The translations under genes and the position numbers were made by a program. From positions 5,079 through 42,456 of the forward strand of contig MHTO01000019.1 of assembly GCA_001823105.1 (NCBI GenBank): a stretch of DNA of 37,378 nucleotides, in the 5' to 3' direction. The DNA comes from Candidatus Wildermuthbacteria bacterium GWA2_46_15 (lineage in GTDB: Bacteria > Patescibacteriota > Minisyncoccia > Minisyncoccales > GWA2-46-15). The notes below the pieces were generated by a model. It was not told the DNA's origin and made no database searches. It was given only the letters and a program-made list of their open reading frames with translations. Below are positions 3,683-37,279 of this stretch, piece by piece. The stretch's first letter is position 1, and each line of letters starts with the position of its first letter.

Positions 3683-5923
3683 ATGGAATCTTCTCTGAGT
3701 AAACTTATGCGCTACGGTTTTTATTTATTGGTTTTTCTCACGCCGCTCTTCTGGCTGCCTTTTTCCTTTGAAGCCTGGGAATTCAACAAGGTGTTTTTGT
3801 TGTTTTTTGGAGGACTAGGTCTTTTGCTGGCCGTGACAATCAATCGGTTTCGTCAACAGTCAAATTTTCAATTTCTCTGGCCGTTTGATTTTCTGGTTTT
3901 ACTCTTTTTGCTACTGGCGGCGGTTTCAGCTTTTTTCTCGGTCGATAAGATCGCCAGCCTCTTTGGGTTTTATGGCCGCTTCTCCGATGGCCTGGTCGGC
4001 CTCCTGAGTTTTATCTTGGTCTATCTTTTGGCTCGGCGGCAAAAGGATCCGACTCGGTTGATCAAGATTTTGTTGGCCTCGGGTTTGATGGTTGTCTGTT
4101 TGTCCTTTTTGGCCCTGACCGGGATTTTTGGCAACCTAGCCGGTTTCAGCGCTACCTTAAAACAGCTGAATTTCAACCCGGTTTCTCCGTCTTTCGAGGG
4201 CCTGACTTTGTTTTTGGTGCCTCTGGTTTTTTTGGCCCTAGGCGTTCTCAAAGAGAAAACCAAATTTATCTTTCTGGTTTTTTCTTTGGGCCTGATCTTT
4301 TTGGTTGATTACACTCCGGCCTGGGTGGTTTTGGGGCTGACCTCTCTTCTGGCTTTAATTTTCCTTTTCTTAAAGAGCTTTAAGGACAAAGAGGGAAACT
4401 TTCTCAGGAAAAACCTGGCGCTGGCCTTATTTTTAGTATTGGCGACTCTGGGCATCAGTTTTAATCTGAATCAAGTTGTGCCCCCGGCTTTGGTCGGCTT
4501 TCCCCGCGAAGTGACCCTGGACCAGACTACCAGCTGGCAGGTCGCCCAAGATTCTCTGAGGGCCCGGCCTCTTTTGGGATCTGGCCCCGGCACCTTTTTC
4601 TACGATTTCTCTCGCTTTCGACTAGCCAGTTTCAACGACGATCCCTTGTGGCAAGTGAGGTTTGACCGGCCGATTAGTCATATAGCCGAGGTGGTTGCTA
4701 GCACAGGGGTAGTGGGAATTTTAGTCTACTTTATTTTGATAGCCGCAGTTCTGAAATCCAAAATTCAACCCTTCGACAGGCTCAAGATTGTCCCGAGCAA
4801 CGTCGAGGGACAAAATTCAAAATTAGAAACGGAGATACCCGACGTTTTATTCTTTGCGTTTTTGGCCGTGGTCATCAGTCAGTTTGTTTATTACCAGAAC
4901 GCGGTTTTGGGATTCAGTTTTTGGCTGTTCTTGGGACTGATCGCGGGCCAGGCCGGGCAGGCCCGGAGCTTTAACTTTCCTTTGCTATCGAGATTTTCCC
5001 GGCTCAAACCACTCAGCCTCGAGAGCCTGAAAGGGAGAATCGTCTTCACGAGTTTAATTCTGGTCTTGAGCCTCGTTCTCCTTTCGATTGTCTTCATCGG
5101 CCTGCGGATCTACGGGGCGGATTCATTCTACCGTCAGGCTTTCCAGAAAGCCGCCGGCCCGGAAAAGACCGCTCTCTTACAGAAAGCGGTTCTCACCAAT
5201 CCATTTTTTGCCGAATACCAGATCATCCTGAGCCGCGCCTTATTAAACTCGGCCCTGGCCGAGTCGCAAAAGCCGAGTCGCGACCTGACCAAGATTTTTC
5301 AGGATTTGAGCCGGTCCACCGACGCGGCCAAGCAAGCCACTCAGCTTTCGCCCCGGTGGGTGGCCGGCTGGGAAACCCTAGGCATGATTTATCAGGAAAT
5401 TCAAGGCCTGGCGACGGGCGCCGAAGAAGCCGGCCAGCGATCTTTTGAAAAAGCCATTGAATTAGAGCCAACTAATCCCTTGCTTTATTCCCGGCTGGGT
5501 AAAGCTTTTTTTGTCCAGGATCAGTTTGACGAGGCCCGGATCCAGTTTGAAAAAGCCCGTCACCTTAAATCCGACTTGCTCGAGCCGAAACTTTATCTGG
5601 CTTTGATTAAGGAAAAGAAAGGGGATCTGCCCGGAGCGATCCGGAACCTGACGCACTTGCAGACGTTTTCTCCTTTGAATGTCGACGTGGCTTTCCAGCT
5701 GGGCCGGCTTTACTTCAACCAAAACCAGAACGATCCGGCTATCCAGCAGTTTGAAAAGGTTCTGACCCTCAATCCGTCTCACCTCGACAGTCTCTATTCT
5801 CTGGCCCTGGCTTGGGAGAAGAAGGGCCAGAAAGCCCAAGCCATTTCTTATTTGGAAGAAGCTCTCCAGATCAGTCCCGATAACGCGCAGCTGAAAGAAA
5901 AACTGCAGGAGTGGCAGAAATAG
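3683..5923 (+). CDS. Second O-antigen ligase/Wzy_C-like polytopic membrane protein with C-terminal TPR repeats (tandem paralogue)
   Basis: Same architecture as 1120-3567 (LGSGPGTFFYDF; FEKAIELEPTNPLLY; QQFEKVLTLNPSH; LEEALQISPDNAQL). I prefer the ATG at 3683, because the TTG at 3662 in the ORF track lies inside the upstream repeat. Confidence 0.75.
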   Translation: MESSLSKLMRYGFYLLVFLTPLFWLPFSFEAWEFNKVFLLFFGGLGLLLAVTINRFRQQSNFQFLWPFDFLVLLFLLLAAVSAFFSVDKIASLFGFYGRFSDGLVGLLSFILVYLLARRQKDPTRLIKILLASGLMVVCLSFLALTGIFGNLAGFSATLKQLNFNPVSPSFEGLTLFLVPLVFLALGVLKEKTKFIFLVFSLGLIFLVDYTPAWVVLGLTSLLALIFLFLKSFKDKEGNFLRKNLALALFLVLATLGISFNLNQVVPPALVGFPREVTLDQTTSWQVAQDSLRARPLLGSGPGTFFYDFSRFRLASFNDDPLWQVRFDRPISHIAEVVASTGVVGILVYFILIAAVLKSKIQPFDRLKIVPSNVEGQNSKLETEIPDVLFFAFLAVVISQFVYYQNAVLGFSFWLFLGLIAGQAGQARSFNFPLLSRFSRLKPLSLESLKGRIVFTSLILVLSLVLLSIVFIGLRIYGADSFYRQAFQKAAGPEKTALLQKAVLTNPFFAEYQIILSRALLNSALAESQKPSRDLTKIFQDLSRSTDAAKQATQLSPRWVAGWETLGMIYQEIQGLATGAEEAGQRSFEKAIELEPTNPLLYSRLGKAFFVQDQFDEARIQFEKARHLKSDLLEPKLYLALIKEKKGDLPGAIRNLTHLQTFSPLNVDVAFQLGRLYFNQNQNDPAIQQFEKVLTLNPSHLDSLYSLALAWEKKGQKAQAISYLEEALQISPDNAQLKEKLQEWQK
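4769..4810. repeat. Imperfect palindromic element CCCTTCGACAGGCTCAAG-attgt-CCCGAGCAACGTCGAGGGA embedded in frame in the CDS
   Basis: Read directly. It shares the exact 15-mer CCTTCGACAGGCTCA with 36332-36346 and is flanked by the 10-nt direct repeat CAAAATTCAA (4759-4768, 4811-4820). Confidence 0.75.
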
Positions 5924-6521: not shown

Positions 6522-6533
6522 CGGCCCGTCCCC

Positions 6534-6558
6534 GGTTGCTTGGTCAGACCAAGCAACC
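6534..6558. repeat. Perfect palindrome GGTTGCTTGGTC-A-GACCAAGCAACC (REP-like), with an extra half-site CAGGCAAC at 6562-6569
   Basis: Read directly. It has a twin at 37236-37258 and shares the GGTC-N-GACC apex with the palindromes flanking ORF 16187-16927. Confidence 0.8.
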
Positions 6559-6627
6559 GACCAGGCAACCGCTTTGACTGGCCGCGAAAAAGTTCTCAAT
6601 TGGAAGAGTTTCAGAAATAAAGAGTTG

Positions 6628-6772: not shown

Positions 6773-6811
6773 GAACTTTAGACGCACTCACCAGAACCCC
6801 GTTGAACGGGG

Positions 6812-6840
6812 TAGACATTTTTTGGGTTGTTTGCTATACT
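6812..6840 (+). promoter_or_regulatory. Sigma70-like promoter TAGACA-17-TGcTATACT (proximal rpoB promoter candidate)
   Basis: TAGACA at 6812-6817, TG at 6832-6833, TATACT at 6835-6840, about 125 nt upstream of the rpoB ATG. Confidence 0.55.
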
Positions 6841-13917: not shown

Positions 13918-16149
13918 GTGAGTAAAAACAATAAGAATCACAATTCAAAGAACTCTCTTTCGAAGAAAGACAAGGAACCAAAGCCCTTGTTCCTTCCGGC
14001 TTTAGCCCGGGGCTATCTCTTGGGCCTGGTTTTTCTCTTGGCCGCGGCCATTCTCACCCTTTCCTTTTTCGATCTGGCCGGCGGGGGAGGAGAAAAAATT
14101 CTCAGTTCCCTCACTTTTTTATTTGGCCAAACAGCGGTCCGGTTGCTGCCTTTGTTTTTGATTTTGGCCGGCGTCTTCTTTTTTGTCGCCAGCCCGAATT
14201 CTCAGAAGATCTGGAAAATGATTATTCTGGCGCTTTTTTCCTGTTTAATCGGCCTGAGCGCGGTTTTGACTTCTTTAAACGGTTACGACAAATTCTCTTT
14301 GGGCGACCCGGGGCCCGGTGGTTTTCTGGGACGCCTTTTGAGCTGGCCCATTCTCAAGATATTTGATTTCTGGGTCAGTCTGGCGGTTTTCGGGGGCTTG
14401 ATCATCTTTGGCTTTTTTATCTTTTGGCAGGTGAGCCGGAAGATCCGGCCCAAAGAGGTTGAGGATCTGGCGGAAAAGCCCCAGATACTCCGGAGGATTT
14501 TTGAACCCCAGCTCAAAATTAAAGAAATCTCGGACAACAAATCCCGTTCCCTGACGGGAGCGGCGCCCTTACCCGAACTCAAAACTAAACCCATTCCCCA
14601 AGGGATGAGATCATCAATTTACAAGAAACCGCCCCTGGATTTGCTGGAAGTTGATCGGGGCGAACCCGTCACCGGCGATATCCGCAATAACCTGACCATT
14701 ATTAAAAAAACCTTAGAGACTTTTGGCATTCCCGTGGAAATGGGCGAAGTTAATGTTGGTCCGACCGTCACCCGATATACCTTAAAGCCGGCCGAAGGCA
14801 TCAAGCTTTCCAAAATCACCACTCTGAATAATGATCTTTCCCTGGCCTTGGCGACTCATCCCATTCGCATCGAAGCGCCGATTCCGGGCCAGTCCTTGGT
14901 GGGAATTGAGATTCCCAACAAGGTCCGAACCCAGGTCAGATTGCGCAATCTTTTTGAATCGCCGGAATTCCAAAATTCCAGTTCATCTTTGGTTTTTGCT
15001 TTGGGCCGGGACGTCGCCGGCAACCCTCTTTTTGCCGATCTGACCCGCATGCCGCATTTGCTGGTGGCCGGCTCGACCGGAACGGGCAAAACCATTTGCC
15101 TAAACAGCCTCATTTTAAGCTTGATTTATCGCAATTCACCCGAGGTGATGAGGTTAATCCTGGTTGATCCCAAGCGGGTGGAGTTCCCGGTTTATCAGGA
15201 CATCCCCCATCTTTTGTCCCCCGTTATCTTTGACGGCCAGAAAACCATCAATACCCTAAAATGGCTGGTCAAGGAAATGGAGAGACGTTTCGAAGTTCTG
15301 GCTCAGGCCAAAGCCCGGGACATCGGCGGGTACAATCGCGAGATCAATTCCCGCCGCGCCAAGACCTCGGTCAAAAATGAAGAAGAGGATTTGGACCCCA
15401 TGCCCTATATTGTCGTCGTCATTGACGAGCTGGCCGATTTGATGGCCGCCCGCGGCAAAGAGATTGAAGGCGGCATCGTCAGGCTGGCCCAGATGGCCCG
15501 CGCCGTGGGCATTCATCTGGTCGTGGCCACGCAAAGACCGTCCGTGGAAGTCATTACCGGTTTAATCAAGGCCAACATTACTTCCCGCATCACTTTCCAG
15601 GTGGCTTCACAGGTTGATTCCCGGACCGTCATTGACATGGCCGGAGCGGAAAAGCTCCTGGGCTCCGGCGACCTGCTCTTTATCTCTGCAGAAACGGCTA
15701 AGCCCCGCCGGATCCAGGGCGGCTATGTCACGGACAAAGAAGTCAAAAGAGTCACCGAGTTTTTGAAGACTCAAAAACATGACTTTGCCGTTTTGAAAGA
15801 AAACTTTTTGGCCGAGGAATTGGAAAGAGAGCTGGCCGTCGGGGAACCCGACAGGGGCGAGTTTTATGCCGGCGAGGAAGACCCTCTCTATCCCCAGGCC
15901 AAGCAATTGGCGATTGAATCCAAAAAAGCTTCGGCTTCCCTGATGCAGCGCCGGTTAAGAGTGGGCTATGCTCGGGCGGCCCGGCTCTTGGATATTCTGG
16001 AAGAAAGAGGCGTGGTCGGACCGGCCGACGGCGCCAAACCCCGGGAGGTTTATCTGACCGGTGAAGTCAAAGAAGGAGAAGGGGGTGTTTCCATTAAGAT
16101 TCAGAGGCCGGGGGGAGAAAAACAGGATGACGAGTGGGAGAAAGTCTAA
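13918..16149 (+). CDS. ftsK: DNA translocase FtsK/SpoIIIE
   Basis: 743 aa with N-terminal TM helices, a Walker A motif (LVAGSTGTGKT), DELADLM, ATQRPS, and a C-terminal winged-helix gamma domain (LMQRRLRVGYARAARLLDILE). Start is GTG at 13918. Confidence 0.93.
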   Translation: MSKNNKNHNSKNSLSKKDKEPKPLFLPALARGYLLGLVFLLAAAILTLSFFDLAGGGGEKILSSLTFLFGQTAVRLLPLFLILAGVFFFVASPNSQKIWKMIILALFSCLIGLSAVLTSLNGYDKFSLGDPGPGGFLGRLLSWPILKIFDFWVSLAVFGGLIIFGFFIFWQVSRKIRPKEVEDLAEKPQILRRIFEPQLKIKEISDNKSRSLTGAAPLPELKTKPIPQGMRSSIYKKPPLDLLEVDRGEPVTGDIRNNLTIIKKTLETFGIPVEMGEVNVGPTVTRYTLKPAEGIKLSKITTLNNDLSLALATHPIRIEAPIPGQSLVGIEIPNKVRTQVRLRNLFESPEFQNSSSSLVFALGRDVAGNPLFADLTRMPHLLVAGSTGTGKTICLNSLILSLIYRNSPEVMRLILVDPKRVEFPVYQDIPHLLSPVIFDGQKTINTLKWLVKEMERRFEVLAQAKARDIGGYNREINSRRAKTSVKNEEEDLDPMPYIVVVIDELADLMAARGKEIEGGIVRLAQMARAVGIHLVVATQRPSVEVITGLIKANITSRITFQVASQVDSRTVIDMAGAEKLLGSGDLLFISAETAKPRRIQGGYVTDKEVKRVTEFLKTQKHDFAVLKENFLAEELERELAVGEPDRGEFYAGEEDPLYPQAKQLAIESKKASASLMQRRLRVGYARAARLLDILEERGVVGPADGAKPREVYLTGEVKEGEGGVSIKIQRPGGEKQDDEWEKV

Positions 16150-16150
16150 T

Positions 16151-16955
16151 TGTGTCAAGGTCAGACCTTGACACAGGAACAAAGAGATGGCAAATAGAAA
16201 TATTTATTTTGAAAAACGTGGCATTTATCATATTTTGACAAGAGCGGTTGATAAGAAAAAGTTTTTTGCCGACGAAAAGGATTGTTTACGTTTTGTTTTT
16301 CAAATGTTCGCCGCTAACCTCGGTATGACCGTCTCCAATTTTCTTCGTCAAAACGTTTCTAACATAGGTAGAAATTTATTAGTTGGTCGGGAAGATTCTT
16401 TTGGTCAAACAAAGCCGAGTCGTGTGTCATTGGTGCACATTTTGAGTTTTGTTTTGGTCGTTGACCACTACCATCTCCTTTTGGCTTTAAACGAAGATGA
16501 TGATGGGATACCGAGATATATGCAAAGACTGAATACCGGCTTTGCCATGTATTTTAATCTCAAGAAGAATCGTCGAGGAGCCCTTTTCGAGAGTCGCTAC
16601 AAGGTTGTTTCGATCGAAAACGAAAGGCAATTAAACACGATTATCCGTTACATCAACATTACTAATCCTTTAGATGTTTGCCAACCGGGTTGGCGCGAGA
16701 GGGGGGTTGAAGACAGAGTCGCCGCTTGGAATTTTCTAAATAAATATCAATTTTCGAGTTTTCCGGATATTTTTGGTAAAAGAAATTCTTCGATTTTAGC
16801 ATCCCGTTCGGTGTTGGATGAATATTTAGGAGAGAGTATAATAAAAGACAGAGCAGGACTTAAAGAATTGGCGCAGGACTACCTATGGCAAAAATCCAAC
16901 CAATTGTTCATCAACACCTTAGAATAACTTTCGTGTCAAGGTCTGACCTTGACAT
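16151..16955 (+). mobile_element. REPtron-like unit: Y1/HUH transposase gene bracketed by inverted copies of a 23-25 nt palindrome
   Basis: TGTGTCAAGGTCAGACCTTGACACA (16151-16175) and GTGTCAAGGTCTGACCTTGACAT (16933-16955) flank ORF 16187-16927. The centre base is A in one and T in the other, so the orientation is inverted. Confidence 0.65.
16187..16927 (+). CDS. IS200-like Y1 (HUH) transposase / REP-associated tyrosine transposase-like protein
   Basis: 246 aa with IYHILTR, an HUH motif in VVDHYHLLL, and a Tyr motif in IIRYINITNP. It is colinear with ORF 23384-24109. Confidence 0.7.
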   Translation: MANRNIYFEKRGIYHILTRAVDKKKFFADEKDCLRFVFQMFAANLGMTVSNFLRQNVSNIGRNLLVGREDSFGQTKPSRVSLVHILSFVLVVDHYHLLLALNEDDDGIPRYMQRLNTGFAMYFNLKKNRRGALFESRYKVVSIENERQLNTIIRYINITNPLDVCQPGWRERGVEDRVAAWNFLNKYQFSSFPDIFGKRNSSILASRSVLDEYLGESIIKDRAGLKELAQDYLWQKSNQLFINTLE

Positions 16956-16970: not shown

Positions 16971-17987
16971 ATGATCAAAAAGAAGGCCGAAAAAAAAGAA
17001 GAGAAAACAGAAGTCAGAAAAGACCTACTGGAAGCGGTGGCCGAGATCAGACAGAGATTTGGCGAGGGCGCCATTATGAAATTAAAAGACGTGAGGGCGG
17101 TTGATGTTGACGTCATCCCCACCGGCTCGCCTTCTTTGGATTTGGCTCTGGGCGTGGGCGGCGTTCCCCGCGGCCGGGTCGTGGAAATATTCGGCCCCGA
17201 AAGTTCGGGAAAAACAACCTTGGCGCTGCATATTTGCGCCGAAGCCCAGAAGACGGGCGGGGTGGCCGCTTTTATCGATGTCGAGCACGCTTTGGATCCG
17301 GACTACGCCAGAAAAATCGGGGTGGCGGTGGAAGATATTCTCATTTCTCAGCCCGATTCCGCGGAAGAGGCCTTACAGATCGTGGAAACCTTGGTTCGAT
17401 CGAACCAGGTTGACGTCATTGTCGTCGATTCCGTGGCCGCCTTGGCGCCCAAGAATGCCATTGAATCAGAGATGGGGGAGTTTCAGATCGGTCTTCAGGC
17501 CCGGCTCATGTCTTCGGCTCTGCAAAAGCTTTCGGGTGCCATCTCTAAGAGCAAGGCAACCGTCATTTTTCTTAATCAAATCCGCATGAAGATCGGCATC
17601 ATGTTTGGTAATCCGGAAACTACTTCCGGCGGTCTGGCTCTTAAATTTTATTCTTCGGTTCGGATTGATTTAAGGCGGATTGCCCAGATCAAGCACGGGG
17701 AAAGCATTATTGGTTCCCGGATCCGGGCCAAAATCGTCAAGAACAAAGTGGCCGCTCCCTTCCGCATCGCCGAATTCGACATCTATTACAACGAAGGCAT
17801 TTCTTATCTCACCGATCTTTTGGCTTTGGGGATAAAGCAGGAAGTGATTAAGAAATCCGGCAGCTGGCTGGACTTTGAAGAAACGAGACTGGGCCAGGGA
17901 ATTGAAGCGGCCAAGAAATATCTCAAGGAGAATCCAAAGGTGGCCGAAGAAATAAAAAAAGTGGTTTTTACTCAGGTTCAAGCTTAA
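16971..17987 (+). CDS. recA: Recombinase RecA
   Basis: 338 aa with GPESSGKTT (Walker A), [18 protein letters not shown] and [10 protein letters not shown], plus a Lys/Glu-rich N-terminal extension. Confidence 0.97.
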
Positions 17988-23347: not shown

Positions 23348-24145
23348 TTGTGCTCGGCGTTGCCTAGCACAAAATTTAACTAACTAATCTTCGAGAGTTA
23401 GATTATTAATTGAATTAAACTTTCTTTCCAATAAACTAGCCCGAACTAGCTTTTGGTAATCTTTACTGCTGGAGAAAATTTCTCCGAGAATATCTTTATC
23501 AATAATAATTGACTTTCTTTTGCCGAGGTATTCTTGATGGGTGCTCCAGAGGTAGCTTCTAACGAAGTCGAGAACTTTGTCCAAATTTTTGATACCCGTT
23601 TTCTTTAAATTTGGTTCCACTAGTTGGGCGGGGTTTATAACGTTGATATAAACCAGCAGCTGTTCTAGATACTCCTGACTATCGACTAAAATAGCCTTGA
23701 ATGGTCCTTCAAACAGGCTGCCGCTCCGCTCGTATTTTTTATTGAGATATTGCGCATAACCGGTGCCGAGTTTATGCATAAATTTTGAAATGCCCCCATC
23801 GTTGATTTCTTTAATCAGTAAATGATAATGATTCGGCATCAGGCAGTCAGCCATAATCCGGACCAGCGGCTGCCGATTTTTTTGGTCATTTTTCAGAAAG
23901 TCTTGTATGGTTTTAAAAGTAGCTTTTCCCTTAGCTCTTTCAACTTGCCAGAGAATATTTGTTGAAGCTTCGACGTCGTTGAATAAAAATAATCCCTGGA
24001 GAAAACGCCATCTATCGTTATCGTTTCGGAAGATATTGCGTTTTTCAACTCCACGATTGTAAATATGATAAATATGATCTTTCGCGAATTGGATTTTTCT
24101 TACGCTCATAAGTATAAGATTCGTGTTAGGCGTTGCCTAGCACAA
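23348..24145 (-). mobile_element. IS200-like unit: second Y1/HUH transposase gene flanked by direct copies of an imperfect 25-nt palindrome
   Basis: TTGTGCTCGGCGTTGCCTAGCACAA (23348-23372) and TCGTGTTAGGCGTTGCCTAGCACAA (24121-24145) are 22/25 identical and in the same orientation. Each forms a 9-bp stem with a GTT loop and one mismatch. Confidence 0.6.
23384..24109 (-). CDS. IS200-like Y1 (HUH) transposase / REP-associated tyrosine transposase-like protein
   Basis: 241 aa with IYHIYNRG, an HUH motif in MPNHYHLLI, and a Tyr motif in LLVYINVINP. It is a full-length homologue of ORF 16187-16927. Confidence 0.75.
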   Translation of the reverse strand: MSVRKIQFAKDHIYHIYNRGVEKRNIFRNDNDRWRFLQGLFLFNDVEASTNILWQVERAKGKATFKTIQDFLKNDQKNRQPLVRIMADCLMPNHYHLLIKEINDGGISKFMHKLGTGYAQYLNKKYERSGSLFEGPFKAILVDSQEYLEQLLVYINVINPAQLVEPNLKKTGIKNLDKVLDFVRSYLWSTHQEYLGKRKSIIIDKDILGEIFSSSKDYQKLVRASLLERKFNSINNLTLED

Positions 24146-24166
24146 CTAGAACAATTATCAATGATG

Positions 24167-24249
24167 TGCCGGGAGCGGGAGTCGAACCCGCATGGAGTTG
24201 CCTCCGCTAGGCCCTGAACCTAGTGCGTCTGCCATTTCGCCACCCCGGC
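24167..24249 (-). tRNA. tRNA-Leu (anticodon CAG), class II with long variable arm
   Basis: The reverse complement folds as a cloverleaf: acceptor GCCGGGG/CTCCGGC-type with one G-U, anticodon stem CTAGG/CCTAG with loop TTCAGGG, variable arm CGGAGGCAACTCCAT, T-arm GCGGG-TTCGACT-CCCGC. No encoded CCA. Confidence 0.9.
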
Positions 24250-33574: not shown

Positions 33575-33592
33575 TAAGACTCGATCTTTAGA

Positions 33593-33629
33593 CAGAAAAC
33601 GGAGGAGACCGGGTCTCCTCCGTTTTCTG
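33593..33629 (+). terminator. Strong hairpin terminator after groEL
   Basis: CAGAAAACGGAGGAGAC-cgg-GTCTCCTCCGTTTTCTG: a perfect 17-bp stem with a U-rich distal part, followed by TT. Confidence 0.75.
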
Positions 33630-33657
33630 TTGCCAAACCGGTCTTTTCTGCTAGAAT
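33630..33657 (+). promoter_or_regulatory. Promoter TTGCCA-16-TGcTAGAAT for lemA
   Basis: TTGCCA at 33630-33635, TG at 33649-33650, TAGAAT at 33652-33657. The same TGCTAGAAT element is present at 13902-13910 upstream of ftsK. Confidence 0.55.
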
Positions 33658-35672: not shown

Positions 35673-35695
35673 ATTAAGGAGCTAAGCTCCTTAAT
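35673..35695. repeat. Perfect palindrome ATTAAGGAGC-TAA-GCTCCTTAAT
   Basis: 10-bp arms and a 3-nt centre. It starts 3 nt after the upstream stop and ends 2 nt before tRNA-Ser. Confidence 0.8.
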
Positions 35696-35806: not shown

Positions 35807-36268
35807 ATGAAAGGATTTGTCATCAACATCGAAAAAGAGACTCGGGCGAACGAGAATTTCCGCCAGGTTCTCTACACCTCTAAACACAGCCAGTTGGTCT
35901 TGATGAGCCTCAAGCCCCGGGAAGAAATCGGGATGGAGAGGCATCCCGACAACGACCAGTTTTTCCGCTTTGAAAGGGGACGGGGCAAATGCGTCATCGA
36001 TGGACACGAGTATGAGGTTTCTGACGGCGTGGCCGTGGTCGTGCCGGCCGGCGCCGAGCACAACGTCGTCAATATTTCTGAAACCGAAGACCTCAAACTC
36101 TACACTATCTATTCCCCGGCCCACCACCAAGACGGCATTGTGCGCCAGAGCAAGACCGAGGCCGCGGCCAGCACCCGGAGTTCGACGGCGTCACCACCGA
36201 ATAAGGCCGTGCTTAACCAGGTTAAGCACAAGGTTAAAAATACTGGCTTTGGAAGTGTAAAATATTAG
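35807..36268 (+). CDS. Small cupin-domain protein; 3' end appears frameshifted
   Basis: MKGFVINIEKETRANENFRQVLYT...VVVPAGAEHNVVN...LKLYTIYSPAHHQDG is a typical single-domain cupin. The family-typical C-terminus EFDGVTTE* is encoded at 36178-36204 but in another frame. The ORF-track start at 35729 lies inside tRNA-Ser. Confidence 0.7.
   Translation: MKGFVINIEKETRANENFRQVLYTSKHSQLVLMSLKPREEIGMERHPDNDQFFRFERGRGKCVIDGHEYEVSDGVAVVVPAGAEHNVVNISETEDLKLYTIYSPAHHQDGIVRQSKTEAAASTRSSTASPPNKAVLNQVKHKVKNTGFGSVKY
36164..36215 (+). repeat. Copy 1 of the 52-54 bp direct repeat (cupin 3' end)
   Basis: GCGGCCAGCACCCGGAGTTCGACGGCGTCACCACCGAATAAGGCCGTGCTTA. Its partner is at 37172-37225. Confidence 0.85.
36209..36229. 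repeat. Palindrome GTGCTTAAC-CAG-GTTAAGCAC (same arms as 677-699)
   Basis: 9-bp perfect arms, overlapping the end of repeat copy 1. Confidence 0.8.
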
Positions 36269-37171: not shown

Positions 37172-37225
37172 GCGGCCAGCGTGCTGGAGTTCGACGGCGT
37201 CACTCACCGAATAAGGCTGTGCTTA
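37172..37225 (+). repeat. Copy 2 of the 52-54 bp direct repeat (orphan cupin 3'-end fragment)
   Basis: GCGGCCAGCGTGCTGGAGTTCGACGGCGTCACTCACCGAATAAGGCTGTGCTTA. It starts immediately after the VKOR stop codon. Confidence 0.85.
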
Positions 37226-37235
37226 CGACCGAATA

Positions 37236-37258
37236 GTTGCTTGGTCTGACCAAGCAAC
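37236..37258. repeat. Perfect palindrome GTTGCTTGGTC-T-GACCAAGCAAC, plus an extra half-site CAAGCAAC at 37266-37273
   Basis: Twin of 6534-6558, with centre T instead of A. The third half-site lies downstream in the same relative position. Confidence 0.8.
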
Positions 37259-37279
37259 GCCTGATCAAGCAACGCTCCA

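Follow-up and report, generated by a model that had tools for sequence, protein, structure and literature searches.

Why should a gene for a transposase-like protein, framed on both sides by a palindrome, occupy the narrow gap between ftsK and recA in a bacterium with a very small genome? The question is raised by a 37,378-nt stretch of contig MHTO01000019.1, hereafter the window, and by an 805-bp unit within it whose gene we call Y1a. A preliminary description, made from the letters alone, had guessed that the host belonged to the Candidate Phyla Radiation (CPR), and the guess was right, as Candidatus Wildermuthbacteria GWA2_46_15, a metagenome-assembled genome (MAG), encodes a hypothetical protein identical to the Y1a product. 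On the analysis given below, the unit is probably a cassette of the REPtron type, in which a class 2 Y1 HUH gene, resembling the REP-associated tyrosine transposases (RAYTs) that accompany repetitive extragenic palindromes (REPs), lies between mutually inverted copies of its expected target palindrome.

The layout of the cassette is compact. The ftsK gene (13918-16149) stops 1 nt before the left bracketing palindrome, TGTGTCAAGGTC-A-GACCTTGACACA (16151-16175), and the ATG of Y1a lies 11 nt downstream of it. The Y1a open reading frame (ORF; 16187-16927, plus strand) encodes a 246-aa Y1 HUH protein of class 2 (RAYT-like) with H94/H96 and a putative catalytic Tyr155 in the motif YINITNP. The right bracketing palindrome, GTGTCAAGGTC-T-GACCTTGACAT (16933-16955), begins 5 nt past the stop, and recA starts at 16971, 15 nt further on. 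All four of these distances had been described exactly to the base, the left palindrome is indeed a perfect 12+1+12 repeat when checked from the letters, and the motifs IYHILTR, VVDHYHLLL, and IIRYINITNP are all located in Y1a. The right palindrome also stands where it had been placed, but the pairing claimed for its full 23-mer does not hold, as the outer pair G16933/T16955 is unpaired and perfect symmetry is confined to 16934-16954 (10+1+10). The centre bases of the pair are complementary (A on the left, T on the right), the foot pairs GTGT with ACAC, and the arms include TTGACA. Both hairpins are stable in folding calculations as single-stranded DNA on either strand (-8.3 to -11.2 kcal/mol, z about -5 to -6), and the left copy reaches -11.2 kcal/mol with a z of -5.9. 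A search of the window for the 22-nt pattern with up to three mismatches returned only the two sites that flank Y1a, with 0.00 expected from 100 shuffles.

The assignment of the protein is based on domain models, residue conservation, and predicted structure. The Pfam model Y1_Tnp (PF01797) matches Y1a with 29.4 bits against a gathering cutoff of 23, although only over aa 83-157, and it matches 32/32 members of the family at E<=5. In an alignment of these 32 relatives of Y1a, which have a constant length of ~246 aa (alignment A1), the residues H15, H94 and H96 (the HUH motif), Y155, N160, and S190/S191 in a YxFSS motif are invariant, and a further alignment that includes a second Y1 gene of the window, Y1b (alignment A2), shows the HUH motif and the tyrosine invariant across three clades. 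The profile match for which the preliminary description had called is thus significant, and the catalytic motifs, whose loss it had named as grounds for doubt, are retained on alignment. The RAYT model NF047646 (REP_Tyr_transpos) is the sole NCBIfam match of Y1a (42.5 bits) and is the only model matched in 16/32 members, while the IS200 hidden Markov model (HMM) matched 0/32. The Y motif of the family is YINIxNP (Y-I-N-I-T-N-P in Y1a), in which NP is invariant and four residues separate the Y and NP positions, versus three in Y---NP. An exhaustive profile search recovered 310 representative clusters at E<=1e-30, most of which are full length. At a threshold of E<=1e-10 the number rose to about 5,300.

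Structural comparison points in the same direction. The family profile places its HUH motif and tyrosine on those of the ISDra2 TnpA sequence; this weak match was the only one among the PDB sequences, and 4er8, the E. coli RAYT with its REP hairpin, was not reached by sequence. The AlphaFold (AF2) model of Y1a is confident (predicted local distance difference test, pLDDT, 84; predicted template-modelling score, pTM, 0.86) and contains strands at 13-20, 83-91, 94-101, and 139-143 and a helix at 146-165, in keeping with a Y1 core of beta-alpha-beta-beta-alpha-beta-alpha order with the tyrosine on the following helix. Its top structural match is 4er8 (E=1.7e-5, template-modelling score 0.66, root-mean-square deviation 4.2 Å), followed by the TnpA proteins of IS608 and ISDra2 with deviations of about 9 Å. 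Pfam yielded nothing consistent in the C-terminal tail, neither a helix-turn-helix (HTH) nor another second domain. Y1a is a member of the Y1 HUH family with conserved catalytic residues and a RAYT-like structure, as had been proposed: the Y1_Tnp cutoff is passed, the HUH motif and tyrosine are invariant, and the best fold match is a RAYT. When Y1a was compared with its homologue at locus L057 (84% identical), the ratio of nonsynonymous to synonymous substitution rates (dN/dS) was 0.21 with a dS of 0.36, and the dS of the neighbouring recA was 0.51. These values indicate that Y1a is functional and under purifying selection and, because dS is comparable to that of recA, that it has diverged together with the locus.

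Comparison with relatives that have no cassette shows to which unit the hairpins belong. RecA orthologues 95, 87, 86, and 82% identical to that of the window are encoded in the same rpoC-ftsK-recA-rpsR-ssb-rpsF-pgm array without a Y1 gene, and the relatives without the Y1 ORF are also without the hairpins (4/4). In the closest of them, L081 (FtsK 98% and RecA 95% identical), ftsK is followed by a 20-nt spacer and then by recA, with neither ORF nor palindrome, and the whole 11-kb syntenic stretch of this relative contains zero perfect palindromes with arms of >=10 nt. The hairpins are thus components of the cassette rather than signals of ftsK or recA. The preliminary description had assigned them to the positions of the ftsK terminator and the recA promoter, an assignment that is contradicted by this empty site, and a consensus check matched neither a promoter nor a T-tract terminator at either hairpin. 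It had also allowed that the same palindromes might occur between ftsK and recA in relatives lacking the ORF; the opposite was found.

The converse event, gain of the cassette, is recorded at locus L008. An orphan ftsK 3' end lies downstream of its right hairpin (6777-6819), with 28/31 nt matching its own ftsK, and the match runs on into the ancestral spacer conserved in L082-L084. The sequence shows a clear insertion scar, in which about 31 nt are duplicated. Transposition by Y1 enzymes of the IS200/IS605 type makes no target duplication, and the scar may have arisen when recombination carried the cassette from one relative to another. When the window and L057 were searched for a comparable duplicate of the ftsK 3' end, alignment scores stayed at noise level, unlike in L008. 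The conserved spacer itself is AT-rich in L082 (4904-5000), L083 (4898-5000), and L084 (4767-5000) and contains a long imperfect inverted repeat, AGTATCTAGTATTTTGTATATAGTATTTAGTAT ... GTATACAAGATACTAAATAC, which may be a regulatory region of recA and which has been lost in the clade of the window, L081, and L057. The ftsK-recA spacer of the cassette-less L084 also has a perfect 13+1+13 palindrome, TTTTTCCTTGACT-A-AGTCAAGGAAAAA (4942-4968), in which the heptamer GTCAAGG is arranged opposite to its arrangement in the Y1a palindrome.

Every Y1 locus examined carries a hairpin pair that is specific to its genome. In nine close relatives one hairpin precedes the ATG by 8-24 nt and the other follows the stop by 1-40 nt, and the more distant loci that have the core palindrome discussed below are bracketed too, with wider spacing or with overlap of the ORF. 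The pairs have the stem TGTCAAGGTC with centres T and A in L057, TTTAAAGCC with centres C and G in L008, and TGTTTAAGGTG with centres G and C in L004. The stem TGTTTAAC carries inverted 7-nt loops (ATCGGAA and TTCCGAT) in L001 and the loop ATCGTAA twice, in direct orientation, in L058, and the stem GTTTGAAGC of L061/62 carries the loop TTC twice, also in direct orientation. Among loci with a 1-nt centre, a count that takes in the identical-core loci L020, L025, L068, and L021 of other CPR, the two centres are complementary in 7/8 (P=4e-4). The mutual inversion on which the preliminary description had laid weight is therefore found in the window and at most of the loci counted, while the pairs of L058, L061/62, Y1b, and a third gene, Y1c, are direct, and the inverted geometry is real though not universal. 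Across relatives, the synteny of the Y1 locus is maintained down to about 54% protein identity. No clear further full copies of a relative's own hairpin were found in its 7-12 kb flanks, only adjacent half-sites, and the palindrome count of L061 was discounted as an artefact of N runs.

Two side observations concern these loci. The centre bases are swapped between the window (16163/16944, A upstream and T downstream) and L057 (722/1509, T upstream and A downstream), being complementary in both. In L001-L003, L058, and L059-L062 the Y1 gene lies beside or between type IV pilus genes, typically those for pilin and prepilin peptidase, and the Y1 proteins of these pilus-linked lineages are only about 50% identical to each other. 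Elsewhere the gene adjoins recA, ftsK, or ligA, so that it tends to be found near genes for DNA handling or uptake, possibly by chance in such small genomes.

Y1a is not alone in its genome. The second Y1 gene of the window, Y1b (23384-24109, minus strand), was missed by the preliminary description and encodes a protein of 241 aa that is 32% identical to Y1a (tblastn E=3e-34; alignment A2), has the Y motif YINVINP, and has the NCBIfam RAYT model as its only match. It belongs to a very large family (1,784 matches) and adjoins a tRNA-Leu gene (24166-24249). Its upstream hairpin (24122-24144, minus strand) reads TGTGCTAGGC-AAC-GCCTAACACG on the gene strand, with one mismatch, and lies about 12 nt before the ATG; its downstream hairpin (23348-23372, minus strand) reads TTGTGCTAGGC-AAC-GCCGAGCACAA, also with one mismatch, follows the stop by 11 nt, is oriented like the upstream copy, and has a calculated stability of -9.5 kcal/mol (z -4.1). 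Further paralogues of the MAG are A2117_00335 (69% identical to Y1b) and A2117_02050 (58%), the latter of which, by its locus tag, should lie just upstream of the window. A 15-kb contig encodes a protein identical to A2117_00335 (Y1c), and its gene is bracketed on both sides by TTGTGCTAGGT-TCG-ACCTAGCACAA. Each of the three visible Y1 genes thus has a private hairpin pair. At least four Y1 paralogues are encoded in the MAG. Their identities of 32-69% are low, as among RAYTs and unlike among insertion sequences. Y1a is not a lone domesticated enzyme, as the second hairpin-bracketed gene in the window and this number of paralogues show.

Our census of palindromes within this genome covers the 37-kb window and one 15-kb contig (about 52 kb), and the MAG is in neither of the scanned collections. 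No solo copy of the exact Y1a palindrome was found in this sequence, and therefore the case for cognate REPs of Y1a in this genome comes down to two palindromes that share its apex. These have the GGTC-N-GACC apex of the Y1a hairpins and were found as announced near 6534 and 37236: CGGTTGCTTGGTC-A-GACCAAGCAACCG (6533-6559), a solo perfect palindrome and a candidate related REP, and GTTGCTTGGTC-T-GACCAAGCAAC (37236-37258), a solo perfect palindrome of the same family with the opposite centre base and an extra tandem half-site (37246-37275). The apex motif GGTCNGACC occurs in seven copies in the window versus 0.39 expected, and 0/100 shuffles reach seven.

Another family, TGTGCTTAAC, is related to the hairpins of Y1b and Y1c and has dispersed copies in this genome. 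In the window it is represented by the solo perfect palindromes TGTGCTTAACT-T-AGTTAAGCACA (677-699), with the TGTGCT...AGCACA foot of the Y1b and Y1c hairpins, and GTGCTTAACC-A-GGTTAAGCAC (36209-36229). The 15-kb contig (L085) has two further solo copies of TGTGCTTAACT-T-AGTTAAGCACA (443-469 and 536-556), both of which are read in frame as ..VLNLVKH.. within the C-terminal part of an mnmA-like gene for a tRNA methyltransferase. The L085 copies resemble intragenic REP insertions of the type reported by Di Nocera et al.

In total, the window contains eight perfect palindromes with arms of >=10 nt (677, 6533, 16151, 16934, 33592, 35673, 36209, and 37236). All eight have a centre of exactly 1 nt (shuffle mean 0.4 per window). 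By sequence they group into related pairs, and all eight sit at gene ends or boundaries. The palindrome after groEL (33592-33630) resembles a canonical bidirectional terminator; it is the only one with A and T tracts, and the idea that all the 1-nt-centre palindromes are terminators was rejected for the others. The palindrome at 35673-35695 ends 2 nt before a tRNA-Ser gene, and an Rfam scan of the window returned two tRNAs only. We also noted a direct repeat of ~40 nt (36177-36215 and 37186-37225) immediately 5' of two different 1-nt-centre palindromes. Its first copy is the 3' end of a short ORF, with the frame judged by eye, and its second copy is non-coding and has the GTGCTTAAC palindrome truncated to its first 7 nt, ahead of the GTTGCTTGGTC palindrome. 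The arrangement resembles the L008 scar in that a gene 3' end is duplicated beside a hairpin.

Dispersal of the Y1a core is visible in other CPR genomes. A scan of 185,579 species genomes found the 19-nt core GTCAAGGTCNGACCTTGAC at 48 loci, of which 36 are labelled Saccharibacteria, Patescibacteria, or other CPR, four are labelled only 'bacterium', and eight belong to unrelated taxa, a number that matches our estimated chance expectation of about nine. A single MAG has up to about 14 copies, some of them paired around Y1 genes and others solo, and a crude ORF map places 35/46 copies between genes, with every gene arrangement represented, divergent pairs included. Each genome has outer stem bases of its own (gct/agc, tgc/gca, cact/agtg, att/aat, and, in a metagenome sample, ccat/atgg), which form no conserved tag. 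The class of the centre base (W or S) is likewise genome-specific in 40/41 copies (P=2e-11), which points to copying within genomes and not to convergence. These genomes encode palindrome-bracketed Y1 homologues that are about 30% identical and have subclass 2.1 motifs, including the canonical YIHLNP. In L051 and L068 the core is found within the Y1 ORF, and the two L051 copies are in frame; copies inside a Y1 ORF have been described for subclass 2.4 (Quentin et al. 2018, PMC6006769). Neither a Y1 relative nor the palindrome was found on viral contigs of IMG/VR. The core also occurs within the conserved sequence ggcaaccaattggttgtgat...aatatggtgaatgagatggcacaaa of a Sodaliphilus MAG (L056) and four metagenome contigs (L067, L070, L071, and L080), in which no Y1 relative was detected and which appear unrelated to the CPR system.

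The Y1a system is a divergent relative of known REP/RAYT systems. With REPtrons (RAYT/TnpA-REP, E. coli YafM, PDB 4er8) it has in common the Y1 HUH/Tyr core, a gene bracketed by inverted copies of a genome-specific hairpin repeat, related genomes with dispersed extragenic copies, low intragenomic identity among paralogues, purifying selection, and largely vertical inheritance. It differs in that the Y1a protein is about 80 aa longer, owing to an insert between beta1 and the HUH motif and to the C-terminal tail, in its Y motif YIN[IV]xNP, and in its host, a CPR bacterium with a very small genome. When judged from the motif table only and not with the authors' HMMs, the nearest motif set is that of TnpAY1 subclass 2.1 (Quentin et al. 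2018; group 1 of Bertels; 'TIRYT/TIRtron' of Di Nocera 2013). Y1a and this subclass both have N/DH[YF]H and F[EQ] replacing W[EQ], the forms in the Y1a family being [ND]HYH and F-E. Both also have the SS motif in the tail, are about 240 aa long, and are flanked by inverted repeats, and in both the flanking repeats are only moderately abundant. However, subclass 2.1 is reported without REP-like hairpins and with a terminal inverted repeat (TIR) consensus GGGG[AT][CG]A[CG], whereas the flanks here are hairpins accompanied by dispersed solo copies; its tails are HTH-like, whereas none was detected in the Y1a family; and the Y1a clade has an additional residue in the Y motif. The TnpA proteins of IS200/IS605 (IS608 and ISDra2) have the same fold, catalytic residues, and subterminal hairpins beside the gene, but they have the class 1 Y motif Y---Q, distinct same-strand end hairpins, near-identical multiple copies, and often tnpB, none of which was seen here.

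Several points weigh against reading the unit as a REPtron-type cassette. Y1a does not reach the equivalog cutoff of the NCBIfam RAYT model (42.5 versus 80 bits), and its Y motif exceeds the class 2 signature by one residue. The unpaired 5' GT[AG]G foot of REPs is absent from the Y1a palindrome, which is perfect and of odd length, whereas canonical REPs are imperfect hairpins. Added to these are the direct orientation of the pairs in L058, L061/62, Y1b, and Y1c and the want of a solo exact copy in the genome sequence at hand. Gain and loss of the cassette, together with the L008 scar, are also compatible with an autonomous mobile element, and it is these observations that keep alive the possibility of an IS200-like insertion sequence, whose left and right ends would be the hairpins and which would move as a whole by a peel-and-paste single-strand mechanism. 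Such an element could account for the presence or absence of the whole cassette, hairpins included, between near-identical relatives, for the insertion seen in L008, for the varied neighbourhoods in relatives (ftsK-recA, type IV pilus genes, and ligA-ftsW), and for several Y1 genes in one genome, and some sources do label the relatives 'transposase'. Nevertheless, we consider it unlikely, because the paralogues are of low identity (32-69%, with no near-identical copies seen), synteny extends to about 54% identity, dS is concordant with that of recA, the Y motif closes with NP as in class 2 instead of the Q of class 1, one and the same hairpin stands at both ends, usually in inverted orientation, and no member of the Y1a family is matched by the IS200 HMM. 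In Quentin et al. (PMC6006769), the class 2 motif is Y---NP and the class 1 motif Y---Q, and intragenomic identity is 99% for IS200 versus 40-55% for class 2. Moreover, no tnpB is present, the ~31-nt repeat in L008 is at odds with the lack of target duplication in IS200/IS605, and no viral copies were found in IMG/VR.

Two further readings would leave the gene aside or deprive it of its chemistry, and both are poorly supported. The hairpins could be host expression signals, such as a terminator or RNA stabiliser of ftsK and a leader or operator of recA, or generic gene-end hairpins with the Y1 gene merely between them. That the eight perfect palindromes of the window all lie where genes end or meet would fit this, as would the terminator-like palindrome at 33592 with its A and T tracts and the action of REPs elsewhere as RNA elements (Di Nocera 2013). 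Yet this is improbable given that the closest relative, with its empty site, has no hairpin between ftsK and recA, that the hairpin sequence changes genome by genome along with the Y1 gene while the bracketing stays, and that Y1a, Y1b, and Y1c each have a private pair; neither a T tract nor a promoter consensus is found at either hairpin, and other CPR have solo copies between divergent genes as well. Alternatively, Y1a might be an exapted regulator that binds double-stranded DNA as a dimer without cutting it, the flanking palindromes being its operators. Perfect odd-length palindromes are typical of dimer operators, the sites lie right at the start and end of the gene, and the arms contain TTGACA, but we regard this as hardly credible, since an HUH motif and tyrosine invariant across 32 relatives and three clades would be unexpected in a protein that had lost catalysis, the tail showed neither an HTH nor another DNA-binding domain, and in-frame copies within genes and genome-wide dispersal imply DNA transactions. 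The REPtron-type reading, which the preliminary description had preferred to an IS200/IS605 element, is supported by the Pfam match, the fold match, the RAYT-only NCBIfam match, the bracketing, and the empty site.

If Y1a works as its relatives do, a mechanism can be proposed, and we infer its steps of hairpin binding, cleavage by Tyr155, and strand transfer from E. coli TnpA-REP and from the TnpA proteins of IS608 and ISDra2. When the DNA becomes single-stranded, for example on the lagging-strand template, the palindrome would fold into a stem of 9-11 bp with a 3-nt loop. The Y1a protein would bind this hairpin, with H94 and H96 holding a divalent metal, and Tyr155 would cut near the hairpin foot to form a covalent 5'-phosphotyrosine link. 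Rejoining to another 3'-OH could then excise, insert, or copy the hairpin-bounded DNA. The gene is kept by selection and mostly inherited with its chromosomal site, while the whole cassette is sometimes lost or inserted. The Y1a palindrome has not visibly spread in this genome, and other CPR carry the same core as a dispersed repeat that is mostly intergenic.

It is tempting to go further, although we offer what follows as speculation that is doubtful as a whole. CPR may carry their own deep RAYT-like branch, in which each enzyme maintains private, perfect, odd-length palindromes at gene boundaries and even in frame within genes, so that the paralogues would shape much of the intergenic punctuation of a genome of <1 Mb. 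An ancient core, GTCAAGGTC-N-GACCTTGAC, would then be common to lineages from Saccharibacteria through Parcubacteria, and the linkage to type IV pilus genes, recA, ssb, ligA, and ftsK would reflect a role in handling single-stranded DNA, for example in competence uptake, and not mere selfish spread.

To our knowledge, nearly all work on RAYTs and REPs has dealt with Proteobacteria and Cyanobacteria, and we know of no established cellular role for either. REPtrons, TIRtrons, and multiple RAYTs per genome are already known (PMC6006769, PMC3733652, PMC5581495), and Y1 genes outside insertion sequences have been reported to be enriched in large genomes (Quentin 2018, PMC6006769). What is new here is the host group, as CPR are absent from these three surveys, together with the perfectly symmetric, untagged, odd-length form of the palindromes, the conservation of the palindrome core across CPR classes, and the association of a subclass 2.1-like protein with REP-like hairpins, contrary to the published description of that subclass. 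No paper linking extragenic palindromes, REPs, or RAYTs to CPR was found in the literature searched, which is absence of evidence only.

The simple two-hairpin cassette with its symmetric, untagged hairpins offers a minimal substrate for biochemistry, and the presence/absence polymorphism and the scar provide natural before/after pairs for cassette movement. A MAG from a group with very small genomes carries at least four Y1 genes and dispersed palindromes. The system is thereby extended to a major uncultured radiation, which argues that such elements are tolerated or useful under strong genome reduction.

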